Part shown: positions 3,259 to 13,874 of the stretch, one piece after another
Numbering within the stretch: the stretch's first letter is position 1
How the letters are laid out: each line of letters opens with the position of its first letter
Virus record (IMG/VR): IMGVR_UViG_3300033987_000055
DNA: 49,636 nucleotides
From: a virus
Direction: 5' to 3' (one strand)
Program-made: the position numbers and the translations under genes
Notes under the pieces: generated by a model
Seen by the model: only the letters and a program-made list of their open reading frames with translations
Told to the model about the DNA's origin: nothing
Database searches by the model: none

Positions 3259-3417
3259 AATACTCCAATCGGAGCAAGTTTACCCACGCTCAAAGGGCTG
3301 TTCCATCCCCAGTTTTACCATTCATATGGCTAATTTTAGTAGTTTGGTTTTCACTACTTTTTAGCAACATTCATCACCCACTTATTGAAGTGGGCGACTT
3401 CTGTCGCTGATTAGGTT
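3259..3417 (-). ncRNA. Candidate structured RNA or intervening sequence between the two halves of the split ORF
   Basis: Locally GC-enriched, non-coding. Serial hairpins are visible on the minus strand: GCGAC-agaa-GTCGC, CCCACTT-caat-AAGTGGG, AGTAGT-n9-ACTACT, CGTGG..(CTCC-gatt-GGAG)..CCACG. Confidence 0.3.
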
Positions 3418-3507
3418 AAATACAAAATCTTCTATATGGTCTTTCATTGTGCCTATGCCGCTTTGAATTACTTTTCTTTCAATAAGTTCTGGTTTACCAA
3501 ATTCCAT
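3382..3507 (-). CDS. Small ORF (41 aa as read), possibly the 5' segment of the interrupted ORF
   Basis: ATG 3507..3505 overlaps the upstream stop (TAATG) and follows an AGGAGAGG RBS. Sequence MEFGKPELIERKVIQSGIGTMKDHIEDFVF.. then runs into the structured insert and stops at 3384..3382. Confidence 0.45.
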   Translation of the reverse strand: MEFGKPELIERKVIQSGIGTMKDHIEDFVFNLISDRSRPLQ

Positions 3508-3719
3508 TAACAACCTCTCCTTAATCTTGCCTCTATGAATTCCAATCTTTGTGTCAGATCAATACCATTAATGTGATAATCATTTTTTTCAATTTCTTCT
3601 ATAAGAGATTTCAAATCATCCGCTGTTTTTAAGGCATTTTCCCATTTTTTTCTATCGATTAATAATGATTCAAAATCGCTTAAACTGATGGTAACCAGCC
3701 CTTGAATGTTCACTTTCAT
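3507..3719 (-). CDS. Hypothetical protein (70 aa)
   Basis: ORF track. Translationally coupled to the next ORF. Confidence 0.5.
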   Translation of the reverse strand: MKVNIQGLVTISLSDFESLLIDRKKWENALKTADDLKSLIEEIEKNDYHINGIDLTQRLEFIEARLRRGC

Positions 3720-4176: not shown

Positions 4177-4371
4177 TTAATTTTCTTTAGTTAATCCTAA
4201 AAACTGTTTAATTTCGTTTATTGTTTTGCCTTCTTCTGCCATTTTTGATACTTCTTTTGTTATTATTTCTGCTACTAAATTTGTATTTCTTTTAATAATT
4301 CTTCTTTTATGCTCAGCAGTGAGAGACTCCCAAGGAACACCTCCCACTGTAATTTTTATGTTCATGGGCAT
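4177..4371 (-). CDS. Hypothetical protein (64 aa)
   Basis: ORF track. The RBS GGGGGA fits the second ATG (4365) better. Confidence 0.5.
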   Translation of the reverse strand: MPMNIKITVGGVPWESLTAEHKRRIIKRNTNLVAEIITKEVSKMAEEGKTINEIKQFLGLTKEN

Positions 4372-4515
4372 TCCCCCTTTTGTTACAATCTATGTTTCTT
4401 AAATTTTGTCCTATGCAACCCCTTTTGTCTAAATTTGCTTATTATTCCATAATTTGAAACTTTATTTAAGAATAATAATATGAAATAATGTATATAGAAA
4501 TCTTTTGAATAATGT

Positions 4516-4527: not shown

Positions 4528-4746
4528 GCAATTATTTAAAAAAATAAATCTTTTAATATCAATATCATTGTCATTACAAAATTTAATTAATTTTTGAGTG
4601 AATTTAATTCCTGGGTTAGCTTCACCTTTTAGCACTCTAAATACAAAACTATAATCTAACCCTAATTCTTGTGAAAATTTATAAGAAGTCCATCCTTTTT
4701 GGGATAGGTATTCATTAATCGCTTTAATATTAATAAGTTCATTCAT
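4519..4746 (-). CDS. Cro-like XRE-family HTH regulator (first lytic gene)
   Basis: 75 aa. HTH segment WTSYKFSQELGLDYSFVFRVLKG. Divergent from the cI-like gene. Confidence 0.75.
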   Translation of the reverse strand: MNELINIKAINEYLSQKGWTSYKFSQELGLDYSFVFRVLKGEANPGIKFTQKLIKFCNDNDIDIKRFIFLNNCCL

Positions 4747-5642: not shown

Positions 5643-7229
5643 ATGAAAATAGCTATATATTCTAGAAAATCAAGGTTTTCAGAATCAGGTGAATCAGTAG
5701 AGAATCAAATTCAACTTTGCAAAGAATATATTGAAAAGCATTTTGATAATATAGAAAAGTTTTACATATATGAGGATGAAGGCTTTTCAGGTGGAAATAC
5801 AGATAGACCTCAATTTCAATTAATGCTAAAAGATGCGAAAAATAAAAAATTTGATGTACTAGTTTGTTATCGCTTAGATAGAGTGAGCAGAAATATTGCC
5901 GATTTCTCAAATCTAATAGAAGAATTACAAAGACACGATATATCTTTTATTTCTATAAAAGAACAATTTGATACTTCTACCCCTTTAGGTCGTGCTATGA
6001 TGTATATTGCTTCTGTATTTGCTCAATTAGAAAGGGAAACAATTGCAGAAAGAATAAGAGATAACATGCACCAATTAGCCAAAACAGGAAGATGGTTAGG
6101 AGGGACAACCCCTCTAGGATTTGATAGTGAACCTATTACATATATAGACCATGAAGGAAAGCAAAAAAAGATGTATAAATTATCACCTATTAAAGGAGAA
6201 CTTGAAATTGTTAAACTTATTTTTGATAAATACTTAGAATTTCAATCTTTAAGTCAATTAGAAGTATTTTGTCTGCAAAATAATATAAAAACACGCAAAG
6301 GAAAAGATTTCGGGAAAATTACTTTAAGACGTATATTAACAAATCCTGTTTATTGCAAAGCTGATATAGATGCTTATAATTACTTTTATGAAAATAAAGC
6401 TTTAATTTGTGATGATAAATCAAAATATAATGGGAAATATGGATTAATAGGATATAATAAAAACTTTAAAAAAGGTGCAATGGTTATACAGAAAGATATA
6501 TCAGAATGGATTATAGCAATTGGAAAGCATAAAGGAATTATAGATGGGAAAGGTTGGGTAGAGGTACAAAATATATTAAATAGAAGAAAAGATTTATCTC
6601 CTAGGCAAGCTACTTCTCATTATGCTTTACTAAGTGGTCTAATCAGATGTAAAAAATGTAATGGGTCTATGATAGTTAAATATGGGCCTATAAAATCAGG
6701 AACAAATAAAAGAATTGCTTATTACGTTTGCAGAATGAAAGTAAATTCAAGACAAGCTAGATGTCAAAATACAAATTTAAGAGTAGATGAGACCGATAAA
6801 TATGTTATAGATGAATTAAAAAAATTAATAGAAACTGGAGTATTAAAAGATTTAGATAAAGCTCAAAAACAATTAGAAAATAAAAACTTAATGAGAAAAA
6901 ATATAAAAGATAAAATATCAGAAAATGAAAAAGCTATAGATAACTTACTTAAGCAATTAGCTAAAACCGAAAATGAAATTATCACAAAATATATATTTGC
7001 AGAAATTGAAAAGTTAGATAAGGAAAACAAGGAATTAAAAGAAAAGCTTGAAAATTATAATATTGAAAATCAAATAGTAAATATTTCAGTTTTCAAAAAT
7101 GCTTGTATCAAGTTCTATGAAATGATTGATAATGTTCCAATAGAACAAAAAAGAAACCTTTTACAATCTATTGTAAATAAGGTTTGGTGGGATGGTGAAA
7201 ATCTAGAAATAGATTTATTTGACATTTAA
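5643..7229 (+). CDS. int: Large serine recombinase (phage integrase)
   Basis: 528 aa. Resolvase-type N-domain (IYSRKSRFS..YRLDRVSRN), recombinase domain, zinc-ribbon CKKCNGSM..YYVCR, C-terminal coiled coil. Confidence 0.9.
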   Translation: MKIAIYSRKSRFSESGESVENQIQLCKEYIEKHFDNIEKFYIYEDEGFSGGNTDRPQFQLMLKDAKNKKFDVLVCYRLDRVSRNIADFSNLIEELQRHDISFISIKEQFDTSTPLGRAMMYIASVFAQLERETIAERIRDNMHQLAKTGRWLGGTTPLGFDSEPITYIDHEGKQKKMYKLSPIKGELEIVKLIFDKYLEFQSLSQLEVFCLQNNIKTRKGKDFGKITLRRILTNPVYCKADIDAYNYFYENKALICDDKSKYNGKYGLIGYNKNFKKGAMVIQKDISEWIIAIGKHKGIIDGKGWVEVQNILNRRKDLSPRQATSHYALLSGLIRCKKCNGSMIVKYGPIKSGTNKRIAYYVCRMKVNSRQARCQNTNLRVDETDKYVIDELKKLIETGVLKDLDKAQKQLENKNLMRKNIKDKISENEKAIDNLLKQLAKTENEIITKYIFAEIEKLDKENKELKEKLENYNIENQIVNISVFKNACIKFYEMIDNVPIEQKRNLLQSIVNKVWWDGENLEIDLFDI

Positions 7230-7230
7230 T

Positions 7231-7272
7231 CGCACTTTGTAACGATAGCAACCTCTATAGTAACAAAATGCG
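7231..7272. other. Candidate attP core (imperfect 13-bp inverted arms around a 16-bp centre)
   Basis: cgcactttgtaac (7231..7243) and gtaacaaaatgcg (7260..7272) match 11 of 13 as an inverted repeat. Lies immediately downstream of int. Confidence 0.35.
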
Positions 7273-7288
7273 ATGAGCATAAAAAAAA

Positions 7289-7311
7289 GAGGTAGGCTAT
7301 TCCTACCTCTT
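7289..7311. terminator. Bidirectional terminator between int and the RHH gene
   Basis: AGAGGTAGG-ctatt-CCTACCTCT, with A8 on one side and T-rich sequence on the other. Confidence 0.7.
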
Positions 7312-7443
7312 TAAGTATTCTCTTAATAGTTCTTCTATTATTTCATTTACATTTTTCCCTTCTTCTATTGCTTTAACTTTTATTTTTTTTAATAATTCAT
7401 CATCAATGTTTGTAGTAAACTTAACTTTTTTCTTTTTTCCCAT
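7303..7443 (-). CDS. Ribbon-helix-helix (CopG/Arc-like) protein, 46 aa
   Basis: Not in the ORF track. Sequence MGKKKKVKFTTNIDDELLKKIKVKAIEEGKNVNEIIEELLREYLKR has a basic beta-strand followed by two helices. Confidence 0.6.
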   Translation of the reverse strand: MGKKKKVKFTTNIDDELLKKIKVKAIEEGKNVNEIIEELLREYLKR

Positions 7444-7465
7444 GACACCACTCCTTTTATAATGA

Positions 7466-7521
7466 TAAAAAAATAGGACTGTCTATAAGTATACCATACG
7501 TGTATACCTATAAACAGTCCC
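7466..7521 (-). terminator. Strong terminator ending the GC-rich moron operon
   Basis: About 19-bp stem GGACTGTtTATAGGTATAC / GTATACtTATAgACAGTCC followed by TATTTTTTT on the minus strand. Confidence 0.8.
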
Positions 7522-7572
7522 TGTGACGGTGAGGAAAAATCCTCGTGTCGTGGGAATTAGAAATCATGGGAG

Positions 7573-8193
7573 CTAGAAAATATCTGACACTTCCCTTTCC
7601 TCCCATGTGGCAGCTAGCAGCTGCCCGTTTCTGTAAACATAGTAATGTGCCGCTGGCTGCCCGTATAATCTGCCACTGTATCCCGTTCTAAAAACTACAT
7701 TTTCTGGCATAATGGCTACTAGCTGTTCACCGCTCCCCATTCTACCAGCATCCCCCTGAGCGATAATGCCGGTAGTGAGAATTTCTCCGGGGAATGGATG
7801 GAACTCAAGTTCACGCCTAAAACCGGCATCTGGAGAATACTTGCTGATGTCTTCGCCGGGGTAACTTGCTTTGAGATACTCCCGGCTATATCTCTGTACC
7901 TCCTCCCAAGTGTATCTCTCTTTTCTGGGCACGCTTTTGGGGAAACTTGCGTACCATTCACGCACCCAGTATTCCTCCTTGCGGTCTCCTGTATGGGAGT
8001 TCCCTCCCCTGAAACCTATCTTTGTCCTGAAGATACAGATACATTTTTCTGTAGTATCTGCATCTTCTGTTTGGAACAACTTTGGCTTTCCTGCCTTAGT
8101 TGTTCCTATCTTGGCAAAATTGATATATGTGTAACCTTTTTCTTGCCATTTCTTGTAATCATTGGGAAGGAGTTGGACTGGGAGCACTCCCAA
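7573..8193 (-). CDS. Hypothetical protein (206 aa), compositionally foreign (about 50% GC by eye)
   Basis: ORF track, TTG start after a purine-rich GGAAGGAAG. I recognise no family. Overlapping plus-strand ORFs are artefacts of the high GC. Confidence 0.55.
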   Translation of the reverse strand: MGVLPVQLLPNDYKKWQEKGYTYINFAKIGTTKAGKPKLFQTEDADTTEKCICIFRTKIGFRGGNSHTGDRKEEYWVREWYASFPKSVPRKERYTWEEVQRYSREYLKASYPGEDISKYSPDAGFRRELEFHPFPGEILTTGIIAQGDAGRMGSGEQLVAIMPENVVFRTGYSGRLYGQPAAHYYVYRNGQLLAATWEEREVSDIF

Positions 8194-8310
8194 CTTCCTT
8201 CCTCTTCCTTCCTCACCTATGATGATTGCAGGGATGGTAATCCCCGCACCTTTTCGTAAAATTTTTCATAAACTGTCATCATTTAAACCCCTCCAATTTT
8301 ATTTTTTATT

Positions 8311-8383
8311 CCTGCCTAGCAGGTTGAGCGGAAAGGGAGAAAACTCCCCTCCTGGGGTTTCACCAGGAACTCCCTAGCCCTGC
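8311..8383 (-). ncRNA. Structured intercistronic element A (two hairpins closed by GCAGG/CCTGC)
   Basis: Plus-strand reading: CCTGC-cta-GCAGGTTGAGCG..GGGAG-aaaa-CTCCC..CCTGG-n7-CCAGG..CCCTAGCCCTGC. Contains the stop codon of the upstream ORF. Confidence 0.6.
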
Positions 8384-8697
8384 TGTACAACTTCAAGTAC
8401 TTTTCTGCATCTCTCTGATGATGGATAGCTTTTTGCTAAATAGTATATTGCATTTTTAATTTTTTGTGGTAGTTCGTTGTAATCTACTTTTTTCACTTCT
8501 ATGACTCTGGAGCTCTCTAAAAATCCAGAGTATAGTGGTCCTGGGTCTAATACTTCGTAAATTGTTCCATCGTCGTCGAGCACGTAATCCCCCTTTTCGA
8601 GAAAAGTAAAGGCAAATTTTAGTGAATCATAATCTGTTTTTCCTGATTTAGGAATAAACTTATAAAACGTACTTGGAAATTTAACATATAGTTTCAT
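8374..8697 (-). CDS. Hypothetical protein (107 aa), ends ..QQG inside element A
   Basis: ORF track. RBS GGAGTGG. Confidence 0.6.
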   Translation of the reverse strand: MKLYVKFPSTFYKFIPKSGKTDYDSLKFAFTFLEKGDYVLDDDGTIYEVLDPGPLYSGFLESSRVIEVKKVDYNELPQKIKNAIYYLAKSYPSSERCRKVLEVVQQG

Positions 8698-8727
8698 TTA
8701 AACCACTCCTTATATAATTATTTTTTC

Positions 8728-8802
8728 CCTGCCTTGCAGGTTGAGCGTTAGGGAGGAGAATCCTCCCCGCTGGAACTTCCCCAGCCTAGAACCTAGCCCT
8801 GC
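8728..8802 (-). ncRNA. Structured intercistronic element B
   Basis: CCTGC-ctt-GCAGGTTGAGCG..GGGAGG-n5-CCTCCC..CTGG-n7-CCAG..CCTAGCCCTGC. Confidence 0.6.
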
Positions 8803-9056
8803 AACTGACGTAAATGCTGAAGAATTTTCTGATACTTTTCCCTTTTGATAACCTCTTTTTGTCGAGTAGCCAATACATACTGTTGACCGTAAGGATAAAA
8901 CTCAATATGAGTTCCGATTCCAATTTGTCGAAGCTCTTGCACTAGTTCCCTTAGATCAGCTTTTGGAATAATCCAACGATTGTATTCTTTAATGGCGCAT
9001 TCCCCAATCAGAAAAAACACAATCATTTGAGAAGCATATTTTTCAATTGTTTTCAT
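8793..9056 (-). CDS. Hypothetical protein (87 aa), ends ..LQG inside element B
   Basis: ORF track. Confidence 0.6.
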   Translation of the reverse strand: MKTIEKYASQMIVFFLIGECAIKEYNRWIIPKADLRELVQELRQIGIGTHIEFYPYGQQYVLATRQKEVIKREKYQKILQHLRQLQG

Positions 9057-9074
9057 TATATTTCCCTCCTTTGA

Positions 9075-9140
9075 GCAGGTTGAGCGGAGCAGGAGAAAAT
9101 CTCCTGACCTCGGCTTTCACGAGGTAGTCCCTAGCCCTGC
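9075..9140 (-). ncRNA. Structured intercistronic element C
   Basis: GCAGGTTGAGCG..CAGGAG-n5-CTCCTG..CCTCG-n7-CGAGG..CCCTAGCCCTGC. Confidence 0.6.
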
Positions 9141-9343
9141 ACATCCTCAATATATACTTCAATGTCTCCATTTTGGAGTATATCAATCATTTCGATTCCC
9201 CCCTTTGCTATATCTTCGCCAAGACTTTTAAGACGTTGTAAACAATCACATACAAATTCATCTGAAATTTGTTCATCAGATAATCCATCACGATAAGTTG
9301 ATGGAATGACTATTTTTTGAAATCCATGTTTTATTTCTCTCAT
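9131..9343 (-). CDS. Hypothetical protein (70 aa), ends ..VQG inside element C
   Basis: ORF track. Confidence 0.6.
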   Translation of the reverse strand: MREIKHGFQKIVIPSTYRDGLSDEQISDEFVCDCLQRLKSLGEDIAKGGIEMIDILQNGDIEVYIEDVQG

Positions 9344-9360
9344 TTTTTTACCTCCTTTTA

Positions 9361-9909
9361 TTAAATTTGTTCTAATATAACCTCTATATATCCTACATCT
9401 TCTCTACCATCATTTATTTCCTTAATCCTAAACTGTGTTTCAGCTGGTATTAATATCTCTGCTTCATTTTCCATATCTCCATCGCTTCCTAGTAACTCCA
9501 TTAACTTCAAGTATACTTCATCATTGGCTAATTGATAAGCTAATTCGTCAGCTTGATCTTCTTCCATATCTAAATCATAGTAGAAATATTCAAATAGTTT
9601 GTCGTAACTGAAATATTGTACTTGATACCCTTCTACTTCTCCATCTACTATTAAAACATACATTATTGATCTATCTGTTTCAGGTATAAATTGTCTTGTA
9701 TTTTCAGCATTTGCATCCATCCAGCTTGTTGCTTTTCCTTGGTTATCCCAAATTTGACCTTCTTTTATATTCAGTTCGTAATCTGTAACTATAATTCTAG
9801 TAACTTCTGTTTTATAGTTTTTTAAATTTGCTATTAAGTTTCTTTTCTCTGCGTCTGTTATATTCATATCTAATATTTGCTTTATTTCTTCTCTGTTCTT
9901 AAATTTCAT
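9361..9909 (-). CDS. Hypothetical acidic protein (182 aa), first gene of the moron operon
   Basis: ORF track. Downstream of a consensus promoter. Confidence 0.65.
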   Translation of the reverse strand: MKFKNREEIKQILDMNITDAEKRNLIANLKNYKTEVTRIIVTDYELNIKEGQIWDNQGKATSWMDANAENTRQFIPETDRSIMYVLIVDGEVEGYQVQYFSYDKLFEYFYYDLDMEEDQADELAYQLANDEVYLKLMELLGSDGDMENEAEILIPAETQFRIKEINDGREDVGYIEVILEQI

Positions 9910-9944: not shown

Positions 9945-9973
9945 ATTATAATCTTAAAGTTATAATATGTCAA
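9945..9973 (-). promoter_or_regulatory. Consensus sigma-A-type promoter (TTGACA, 17-nt spacer, TATAAT)
   Basis: Minus strand: TTGACA at 9973..9968 and TATAAT at 9950..9945. Confidence 0.75.
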
Positions 9974-10021
9974 TACTTTTTTAAATATTTTTTTTACTAT
10001 TTTAAAGTTTTTGTTTGTTCT

Positions 10022-10050
10022 TTGACACATACCATTTAATATAGTAAAAT
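10022..10050 (+). promoter_or_regulatory. Near-consensus promoter (TTGACA, 17-nt spacer, TAAAAT) for the plus-strand HTH gene
   Basis: TTGACA at 10022..10027 and TAAAAT at 10045..10050. Confidence 0.7.
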
Positions 10051-10083: not shown

Positions 10084-10353
10084 ATGATTAGCTATGAGCC
10101 ATTATTTCATACGCTATTAAGAAAGAAAAGAAAACTTTCAGACTTAGCAGAAGCAGGAATAAGCTCAAGAATAATAGCAAAGTTTAGAAAAAATGAGCAT
10201 GTAAACACGTCAACATTAGAAAAAATATGTTTATATCTTCAATGTAATATTGAAGATGTAATTGAAATTATCCCTGATAACCATAACGTCAATCCAGAGG
10301 TATATCATTCACCAAGTTGGCACCACAATGAACCAGATCCTGAAGATTACTAA
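10084..10353 (+). CDS. XRE-family HTH regulator (89 aa)
   Basis: KLSDLAEAGISSRIIAKFRKNEHVNTSTLEKICLYL. RBS AAGGAGGG. Confidence 0.75.
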   Translation: MISYEPLFHTLLRKKRKLSDLAEAGISSRIIAKFRKNEHVNTSTLEKICLYLQCNIEDVIEIIPDNHNVNPEVYHSPSWHHNEPDPEDY

Positions 10354-13841: not shown

Positions 13842-13874
13842 CAAAAAAATAAAAAAAGCAGGGATTACCCCTGC
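13842..13874 (-). terminator. Rho-independent terminator
   Basis: GCAGGG-n5-CCCTGC followed by T7AT7 on the minus strand. Confidence 0.7.

Follow-up and report, generated by a model that had tools for sequence, protein, structure and literature searches.

Three predicted twister-sister ribozymes between the small genes of a prophage operon

A 49,636-nucleotide stretch of viral DNA (IMG/VR record IMGVR_UViG_3300033987_000055; here called the window, which always means the whole stretch) carries, within a run of small open reading frames (ORFs), three copies of an element of about 66 nucleotides (nt) built of two hairpins inside a closing helix. This raises the question of what sort of element is repeated in this way, and what it could do for the genes that it separates. 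An earlier note on this DNA had not recognised the motif and listed four candidate roles for it, namely intercistronic processing, antitermination, the binding of a ligand or protein, and recombination for cassette shuffling. Judged by fold and conserved nucleotides, the elements appear to be twister-sister (TS) self-cleaving ribozymes in their three-way-junction form (Rfam RF02681), a class reportedly described by Weinberg et al. in 2015, and cleavage is predicted. The motif thus falls into a known ribozyme family, the very finding that the earlier note had held to speak against its own view. That the three copies are TS-class ribozymes which cleave the mRNA of their operon is in our judgement very probable, most securely for copy C and least so for copy B:

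9075-9140, minus strand: TS copy C (66 nt), with helix P1 GCAGG/CCUGC, loop L1 GCUAG/GCUCAA, P2 GGA/UCC, P4 loop GUGAAAGCC and P5; 39.2 bits with RF02681 and 81 bits with our own model R1
8736-8802, minus strand: TS copy B (67 nt), a variant subtype, with P2 GUU/AAC and SL4 loop GGGAAGUUC; 75.3 bits with R1
8319-8383, minus strand: TS copy A (65 nt), with SL4 loop GUGAAACCC and a junction base G where copy C has C; 75.0 bits with R1

The copies lie where the earlier note had placed them, on the strand that also carries all genes of the region, and exactly three are present in the window. The pattern of their shared ends (GCAGGGCTAGG-N40-55-CGCTCAACCTGC) gives three matches in the window, all on the minus strand, and none in 100 dinucleotide-preserving shuffles. 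When the covariance model R1, built from 37 distinct sequences, was run over the whole window with filters off, the next best score after the three listed above was 11 bits. A palindrome at 13858-13874 (GCAGGG...CCUGC) that reuses the P1 sequence reaches only 11 bits with R1 and is probably a chance occurrence. Relatives were collected with the pattern CAGGGCTAGG-N35-65-CGCTCAACCTG, which occurs at 32 viral loci in IMG/VR, with up to five copies per locus, and on 13 contigs in genomes, mostly of Bacillota (Tissierella, Clostridia, Butyrivibrio, Paenibacillus, Halanaerobiales); three genome matches from non-Bacillota metagenome-assembled genomes may be due to chance. One locus from the first pattern scan (L004) was discarded as a chance match, having neither the fold nor a model hit. 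Across the viral loci R1 finds 51 copies.

Read along the minus strand, each copy consists of GCAGG (the 5' strand of P1), the GCUAG loop, a 3-nt strand of P2, hairpin P4, hairpin P5, the 3-nt strand P2', the GCUCAA loop and CCUGC (the 3' strand of P1). The two hairpins of the earlier note are therefore real, its hairpin 1 being P5 and its hairpin 2 being P4, and its GCAGG/CCTGC closing helix is P1; the 3-bp helix P2 had been overlooked. The note had argued from compensatory changes for a selected structure, and had suggested a covariance model to check it. The case was thin on three copies alone and is firmly borne out by an alignment of 40 distinct sequences, for which slid 3' partners and 500 shuffles served as controls. 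Standard pairing is present in 95.7% of the cells of this alignment, as against 35-52% with the partners slid, and the covariation score of 0.665 compares with 0.11-0.21 for slid partners and is reached by 0 of 500 shuffles. Changes on both sides of a pair are seen in two of the three P2 pairs, five of the six P4 pairs and all six P5 pairs; no variable pair in P4 or P5 is without them. The short P2 helix alone occurs as GGA/UCC (as in A and C), GUU/AAC (as in B), GCC/GGC and GUA/UAC, and in a broader, less closely related set retrieved with P1-free patterns there are 29 different 3' strands of P1 with pairing kept. Several G-U pairs in the relatives would turn into A-C mismatches if read on the opposite strand, so that the selected molecule is the minus-strand RNA. 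The earlier note had allowed for RNA or single-stranded DNA; of these, RNA on the coding strand stands.

Rfam itself reports one of the three copies. In a scan of 7400-9500 (2.1 kb), copy C matches RF02681 at 39.2 bits (gathering threshold 34; E=1.3e-6) over the full length of the model with the optional P3 deleted, which is the three-way-junction form. Scans of the whole 49.6-kb window, at gathering and at E-value thresholds, gave no report at all. The Rfam search is filtered, and relatives that were lost in a 24-kb scan were recovered in a 231-nt scan. Since whole-window scans miss all three copies, counts of such arrays in phage genomes are probably too low. Same-family relatives score 35.8-63.1 bits with RF02681; among them are L007, with the SL4 loop and junction base of copy A (44.7 bits), and L023a (L023:134-205), with the P2 and junction of copy B (41.9 bits). 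Because these near relatives pass, we take the silence of RF02681 on copies A and B as a limit of the filtered search and not as counter-evidence to their membership.

Do the copies retain what a TS ribozyme would need for catalysis? The class features used here follow the consensus lines of Rfam together with PMC5660989, where the L1 core reads G5 C6 A7 A8 G9 / G59 C60 U61 C62^A63 U64. Loop L1 is identical in the three copies of the window, GCUAG/GCUCAA, which corresponds to G5 C6 U7 A8 G9 / G59 C60 U61 C62^A63 followed by A64. Published mutants show that G5A and A63U are inactive, that C62 is replaceable and that A7U cleaves like wild type (PMC5660989). The TAG stop codon that the loop supplies to the upstream gene comes from U7, and therefore equals precisely the tolerated A7U change. 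A64 is present in 44 of the 78 natural TS instances retrieved. Cleavage is predicted at the C^A dinucleotide, that is at 9082/9081 in copy C, 8743/8742 in copy B and 8326/8325 in copy A.

The loop of hairpin P4 (SL4) gives a further test. Its consensus, G29-U30-G31-N-A33-A34-G35-N-C37, makes the T1 and T2 contacts with L1 and the junction, and in the three-way-junction crystal structure 5T5A the T2 contact is a Watson-Crick pair between SL4 G27 and junction C14 (PMC5660989). The loop of copy C (GUGAAAGCC) fits the consensus, with C-G as its T2 pair. In copy A (GUGAAACCC) the change G35C is matched by a junction change from C to G, and the T2 pair becomes G-C. The same is seen across the family, where the base of the junction that adjoins P2 on its 3' side forms C-G with SL4 position 35 in 19 cases and G-C in 12, mismatches being confined to the B subtype; this covarying pair corresponds to the T2 pair of 5T5A. 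In its general build the element agrees with the known class, for which three-way (5T5A) and four-way (PMC5660989) structures exist: it has P1, L1, P2, junction, P4 and P5 without the optional P3, the L1 core with its C^A dinucleotide, a 9-nt SL4 loop closed by G-C, the T2 pair (in copies C and A), and a genomic setting of phage and integrase genes. It differs in U7, which often makes a UAG used as the upstream stop, in A64, in the SL4 variants of copies A and B (GUGAAACCC and GGGAAGUUC), which the filtered RF02681 search leaves unreported, and in a downstream repeat complementary to P1 that most members of the subfamily possess.

The genes around the copies suggest what cleavage would be for. 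They are arranged as a predicted minus-strand operon with an mRNA of about 2.4 kb, in the order ORF182, ORF70, copy C, ORF87, copy B, ORF107, copy A and a last gene, beside the integrase gene of the prophage:

9945-9973, minus strand: predicted sigma-70 promoter, TTGACA-17-TATAAT (12/12 match), preceding ORF182
9361-9909, minus strand: ORF182 (182 amino acids, aa), the first cistron, with no ribozyme between it and ORF70
9131-9343, minus strand: ORF70 (70 aa), with its last two codons and TAG (9133-9131) in P1/L1 of copy C; it has a homologue in L026
8793-9056, minus strand: ORF87 (87 aa), between copies C and B, with its stop (8795-8793) inside copy B
8374-8697, minus strand: ORF107 (107 aa), between copies B and A, with its stop (8376-8374) inside copy A
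7573-8283, minus strand: last cistron, after copy A, comprising a 20-aa ORF (8283-8221) and a 206-aa ORF (7573-8193) in another frame
7475-7521, minus strand: predicted intrinsic terminator, a 20-bp stem and T run, closing the operon after the last gene
7303-7443: ribbon-helix-helix (RHH) gene, a neighbour of the ribozyme island
5643-7229, plus strand: large serine recombinase, the prophage integrase (Pfam Resolvase, Recombinase and Zn_ribbon_recom; PHROG 95 integrase, E=1e-120)

As the earlier note had observed, the genes at 9131-9343, 8793-9056 and 8374-8697 all end ...CAG GGC TAG, and the TAG lies inside the GCUAG loop, giving each protein a C-terminal QG. The ORF107 homologues of two related phage loci, L010 (104 aa) and L026 (110 aa), likewise end ...QQG-TAG inside a ribozyme. 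In most of 116 TS instances from phages, the stop codon of the preceding ORF is either the L1 UAG itself, as in 24 of 56 U7-type instances, or lies 4-15 nt before L1, where it falls in or just before P1 in U7 and A7 types alike; downstream of the same 116 there follow a ribosome-binding site and a start codon at a median distance of 28-39 nt. The QG-TAG ending thus seems to be a habit of the subfamily and not a peculiarity of the window. The note had also wondered whether such elements overlap stop codons and flank different genes elsewhere, and they do both, the small ORFs between them differing among relatives.

The most likely role for the array, by analogy with prophage ribozymes, is intercistronic mRNA processing, in which a long message is cut into single-gene pieces. 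Clustered hammerhead ribozymes in prophages bracket single variable genes near integrases; processing has been proposed for them, and cleavage has been shown for some (Perreault et al. 2011, PMC3088659). TS, twister, pistol and hatchet ribozymes occur in phage contexts like those of hammerheads (PMC8782182), and the role of bacterial and phage self-cleaving ribozymes has been called largely open (PMC6765202). By this comparison an operon beside a serine integrase would be a classic context for bacterial ribozymes; the class and its typical habitat are known already, and the array is a further example of several ribozymes bracketing individual small genes near an integrase. It differs from the hammerhead clusters in ribozyme class and cleavage chemistry, and also in that the cleavage site lies at the 3' edge of the ribozyme, which would leave nearly the whole ribozyme on the upstream fragment, in contrast to hammerheads. 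Of the four roles in the earlier note, intercistronic processing, the first it named, is the best supported, given the single predicted operon and the prophage parallels; its antitermination and ligand-binding suggestions find no support.

How cleavage would proceed can be outlined from the positions of the conserved parts. Each ribozyme would fold during synthesis and cut between C62 and A63 on the 3' strand of L1 (GCUC^AA), and the three cuts would part the message immediately after the stop of each upstream gene. The upstream fragment would retain the compact ribozyme fold and end in a 2',3'-cyclic phosphate. The downstream fragment would begin with 5'-OH-AA followed by the freed 3' strand of P1, which in copies A and B could pair again with a conserved GCAGG just downstream. 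We infer both cleavage itself and any effect it has on mRNA stability and translation. The downstream arms are:

8311-8315, minus strand: anti-P1 arm of copy A, GCAGG, which can pair with the P1 3' strand CCUGC at 8319-8323 across a 3-nt loop
8728-8732, minus strand: anti-P1 arm of copy B, which can pair with CCUGC at 8736-8740 across a 3-nt loop

Is this second partner for P1 conserved? The CCTGC-n3-GCAGG palindrome that the earlier note reported is present at A (8311-8323) and B (8728-8740), and it is missing at copy C. Among the distinct flanks of relatives, 36 of 44 have CAGG within 25 nt downstream, against a background of 8% and 0 in two control windows, and the spacers in front of it vary in sequence and length. 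In the wider set an anti-P1 pairing of at least 4 bp is found in 49 of 97 instances, compared with 14.7 +/- 3.5 after permutation of the downstream regions among instances that differ in P1; for P1 helices other than CCUG the figures are 13 of 37 and 5.6 +/- 2.0 (P about 0.0007). By computed secondary-structure energy the P1-closed and anti-P1 conformers hardly differ (-30.3 vs -30.8 kcal/mol for A, -32.1 vs -32.5 kcal/mol for B). The predicted 3' cleavage product of copy A is a 5'-AA followed by a 5-bp hairpin of -6.6 kcal/mol. We infer that the hairpin, once cleavage has taken place, captures the released P1 strand and caps the 5'-OH end. In Bacillus, RNase J1 degrades the 5'-OH product of the glmS ribozyme (PMC11780869, citing Collins 2007). 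An activity that trims 5'-OH ends by 2 nt is described in B. subtilis (PMC11780869). In the predicted 3' products of A (8325-8311) and B (8742-8728) the hairpin is preceded by exactly two unpaired nucleotides (AA), a match with the trimming that may be coincidence.

We met no description of this anti-P1 repeat, which most subfamily members carry, in the TS literature covered, a scope that did not extend to the class-defining Weinberg 2015 paper. The nearest known arrangement is RiboJ, which consists of the sTRSV ribozyme and a 23-nt hairpin suggested to raise mRNA stability or to expose the ribosome-binding site (PMC6206723). Both consist of a ribozyme and then a hairpin, and in both the cleaved downstream mRNA would start with a defined hairpin before the ribosome-binding site. 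RiboJ differs in being engineered and hammerhead-based, with a hairpin that is independent of the ribozyme; the hairpin here, unlike that of RiboJ, would reuse the 3' strand of P1 and form only at the expense of P1.

The earlier note also called the pattern of gene and element cassette-like, and comparison with relatives shows that this is real. L026 is a close relative that encodes the same 473-aa protein and is 95.6% identical across the promoter region; the same genes are present but rearranged, and a breakpoint lies within a ribozyme. Its order is ORF71, TS, ORF110 (the ORF107 homologue), TS, ORF87, a GCAGGGCTAG remnant and a terminator. The second ribozyme (4352-4417) is chimeric, joining the first 40 nt of copy A to the 3' half and leader of copy C, with C62U, and the protein of its ORF87 is identical to that of the window while standing behind a different ribozyme 5' half. 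The 10-nt remnant GCAGGGCTAG (4690-4699), directly followed by the terminator, still gives ORF87 its QG-TAG end. L010 has the same flanks as the window (a B-type TS, the homologues of ORF107 and of the 206-aa ORF, and the RHH gene), with five ribozymes and extra cargo. From L026 and L010 together we therefore deduce exchange through the ribozyme cores. We read this exchange as a probable consequence of repeated homology and not as a dedicated recombination function.

Taken together, stop codon, TS ribozyme, anti-P1 copy and A-rich spacer with ribosome-binding site could form one composite, self-contained intercistronic module, a proposal that we offer tentatively and hold to be doubtful as a whole. 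In such a module the upstream stop codon would be built into P1/L1 or abut it, the anti-P1 hairpin would prevent reversal of the cleavage and protect the 5'-OH from 5' exonucleases of the RNase J1 type, and the ribozyme cores would also be the joints at which single-gene cassettes are swapped by homologous recombination, because every cassette carries the same core of about 65 nt at both ends. If true, RiboJ, a synthetic insulator, would have a natural equivalent in this module. The locus adds nothing to the catalogue of ribozyme classes; it is a natural test bed, with three TS variants in one short predicted operon, and offers comparative signals in the stop fusion, the P1-reusing hairpin and a natural chimera with cassette exchange via the cores. 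What we regard as modestly new are the anti-P1 hairpin, the stops at or inside the ribozyme and the chimeric ribozyme of the sister phage.

How far does cleavage hold for each copy? It is quite improbable, in our estimate, that the TS fold is kept while some or all copies (B, perhaps A) no longer cleave and act as passive spacers, 3' stabilisers or protein-binding sites. This alternative can draw on several observations that weigh against three active ribozymes. RF02681 is silent on A and B at E<=10 in filtered scans of 75-131 nt, and the membership of these two rests on R1 and on relatives that pass RF02681. The SL4 loop of copy B (GGGAAGUUC) is off consensus at three positions (U30G, A34G and G35U), and the copy is without a Watson-Crick T2 partner, placing C opposite U as its subtype does (nine distinct members); it could be slow or inactive. 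The published mutants cited above do not include U64A, and many computationally predicted ribozyme candidates have failed to cleave in tests (PMC8782182). On the same side of the balance, P1 covariation comes only from the broader set, the first search pattern having had a fixed P1; the operon promoter and terminator are consensus matches only; and the anti-P1 signal is modest outside the GCAGG subfamily and could in part reflect the A/C-rich composition of the leaders. Against a loss of cleavage stands the invariance of L1, G5 and A63 included, in all copies and 40 relatives. The G35C change of copy A is offset at the junction, and relatives of the A and B subtypes both exceed the Rfam threshold. 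Further, 11 strictly kept loop nucleotides next to freely covarying stems point to selection of the catalytic type, which a spacer would not need. SL4 positions 30 and 34 also covary in the family (U-A 18, A-U 13, G-G 6, C-A 3), with G-G in the B subtype, and copy B would on these grounds be a real, conserved variant with a different tertiary contact.

The cassette exchange raises another alternative, which we consider very unlikely, namely that the elements are recombination sites at the DNA level (attC-like or homology patches) and that the RNA fold is incidental. The reordered genes of L026 with its chimeric ribozyme (A 5' part, C 3' part) and 10-nt remnant, and the same flanking genes in L010 with five ribozymes and extra cargo, are what such sites would produce. 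Integron cassettes are likewise small promoterless ORFs, differing among relatives, with short structured repeats between them. An attC site combines an inverse core RYYYAAC with a core GTTRRRY, and GTTGAGC on the plus strand fits the latter. Yet this is the only end that fits, and with respect to the ORFs it is at the wrong side; an inverse core in attC arrangement and an R''/R' core pair are both missing; and the only recombinase is the phage-type large serine integrase, with no integron integrase (IntI), so that attC membership was rejected. The structure, moreover, is strand-specific, its G-U pairs working on one strand as RNA, and conservation falls on the catalytic loops of a known ribozyme. 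Exchange via some 65 nt of shared sequence is to be expected from ordinary homologous recombination and is better seen as a by-product. A REP/BIME reading was ruled out by the same strand specificity and catalytic-loop identity, and a CRISPR reading by the spacing of 339-417 nt filled with ORFs; the earlier note's statement that the elements are neither REP/BIME nor integron holds. Transcription-control RNAs (put-like antiterminators, attenuators or terminators) would account for two adjacent hairpins inside an operon, and we give them next to no weight. No intrinsic terminator was found at the three elements by scan, an A-rich spacer and no U-tract following them; the minus-strand scan placed terminators only at 7521-7475 and 7312-7286, with none between the promoter at 9973-9945 and 7521-7475; and what Rfam matches here is a ribozyme family. 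Nor are put RNAs known to combine a closing helix and a conserved asymmetric internal loop. Cleavage of the operon mRNA by TS ribozymes is accordingly the reading that we prefer, at the strengths given above for each copy.

The cargo of the array and its surroundings deserve some further remarks. The four cargo ORFs have no family match in Pfam, PHROG or PADLOC. The 20-aa ORF of the last cistron has a good ribosome-binding site and ends at 8221; the coding sequence goes on as the 206-aa ORF in another frame. The L010 homologue of this cistron is uninterrupted (7249-8118, 289 aa). The window also encodes the KGAGITIPAIIIGEEGRGR segment of this homologue, ahead of the TTG annotated as the start of the 206-aa ORF. 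The last cistron is therefore probably one gene with a frameshift, which could mark a pseudogene, be programmed, or stem from an error in assembly. The ribozyme island (7500-9350) has a G+C fraction of 0.35-0.49, compared with about 0.27 (range 0.25-0.31) in the surrounding prophage, and is compositionally foreign. A BLAST search against GenBank phages gave only a 98-nt match near the RHH gene, and none for the structural region.

RAGATH-36 (RF03104) was tried for copy B and its relatives and rejected. They align weakly to its first ~50 positions (two hairpins, AACGCU.A and a further stem) with scores of 18-29 bits, copy B itself reaching 22, below the threshold of 70, so they are not members. 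The B-type TS together with its downstream hairpin (window 8700-8788; L023 150-250) aligns weakly to the same family, and RAGATH-36 itself may be kin of the B-type TS subtype, extended on the 3' side. Other RNA elements occur at the related loci. Matches to the type-P1 twister ribozyme at L023 1052-1111 (57.4 bits) and L016 1452-1515 (54.5 bits), both below the threshold of 67.2, share their viral contig with several TS copies, which would make for mixed ribozyme classes in one array. L021, also with TS ribozymes, has a group I intron match at 3323-3666 (54.4 bits, threshold 50), and L030, again a locus with TS ribozymes, has a CRISPR-DR2 repeat match at 1249-1278 (38.9 bits, threshold 37). 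Finally, the operon promoter of the window (minus strand, 9973-9945, 12/12) stands back to back with a second sigma-70 consensus promoter on the plus strand (10022-10050, 11/12), which would drive a Cro/CI-type helix-turn-helix gene at 10084-10353. The region of this promoter pair (9945-10050) looks like a lysogeny-type switch controlling the ribozyme operon.

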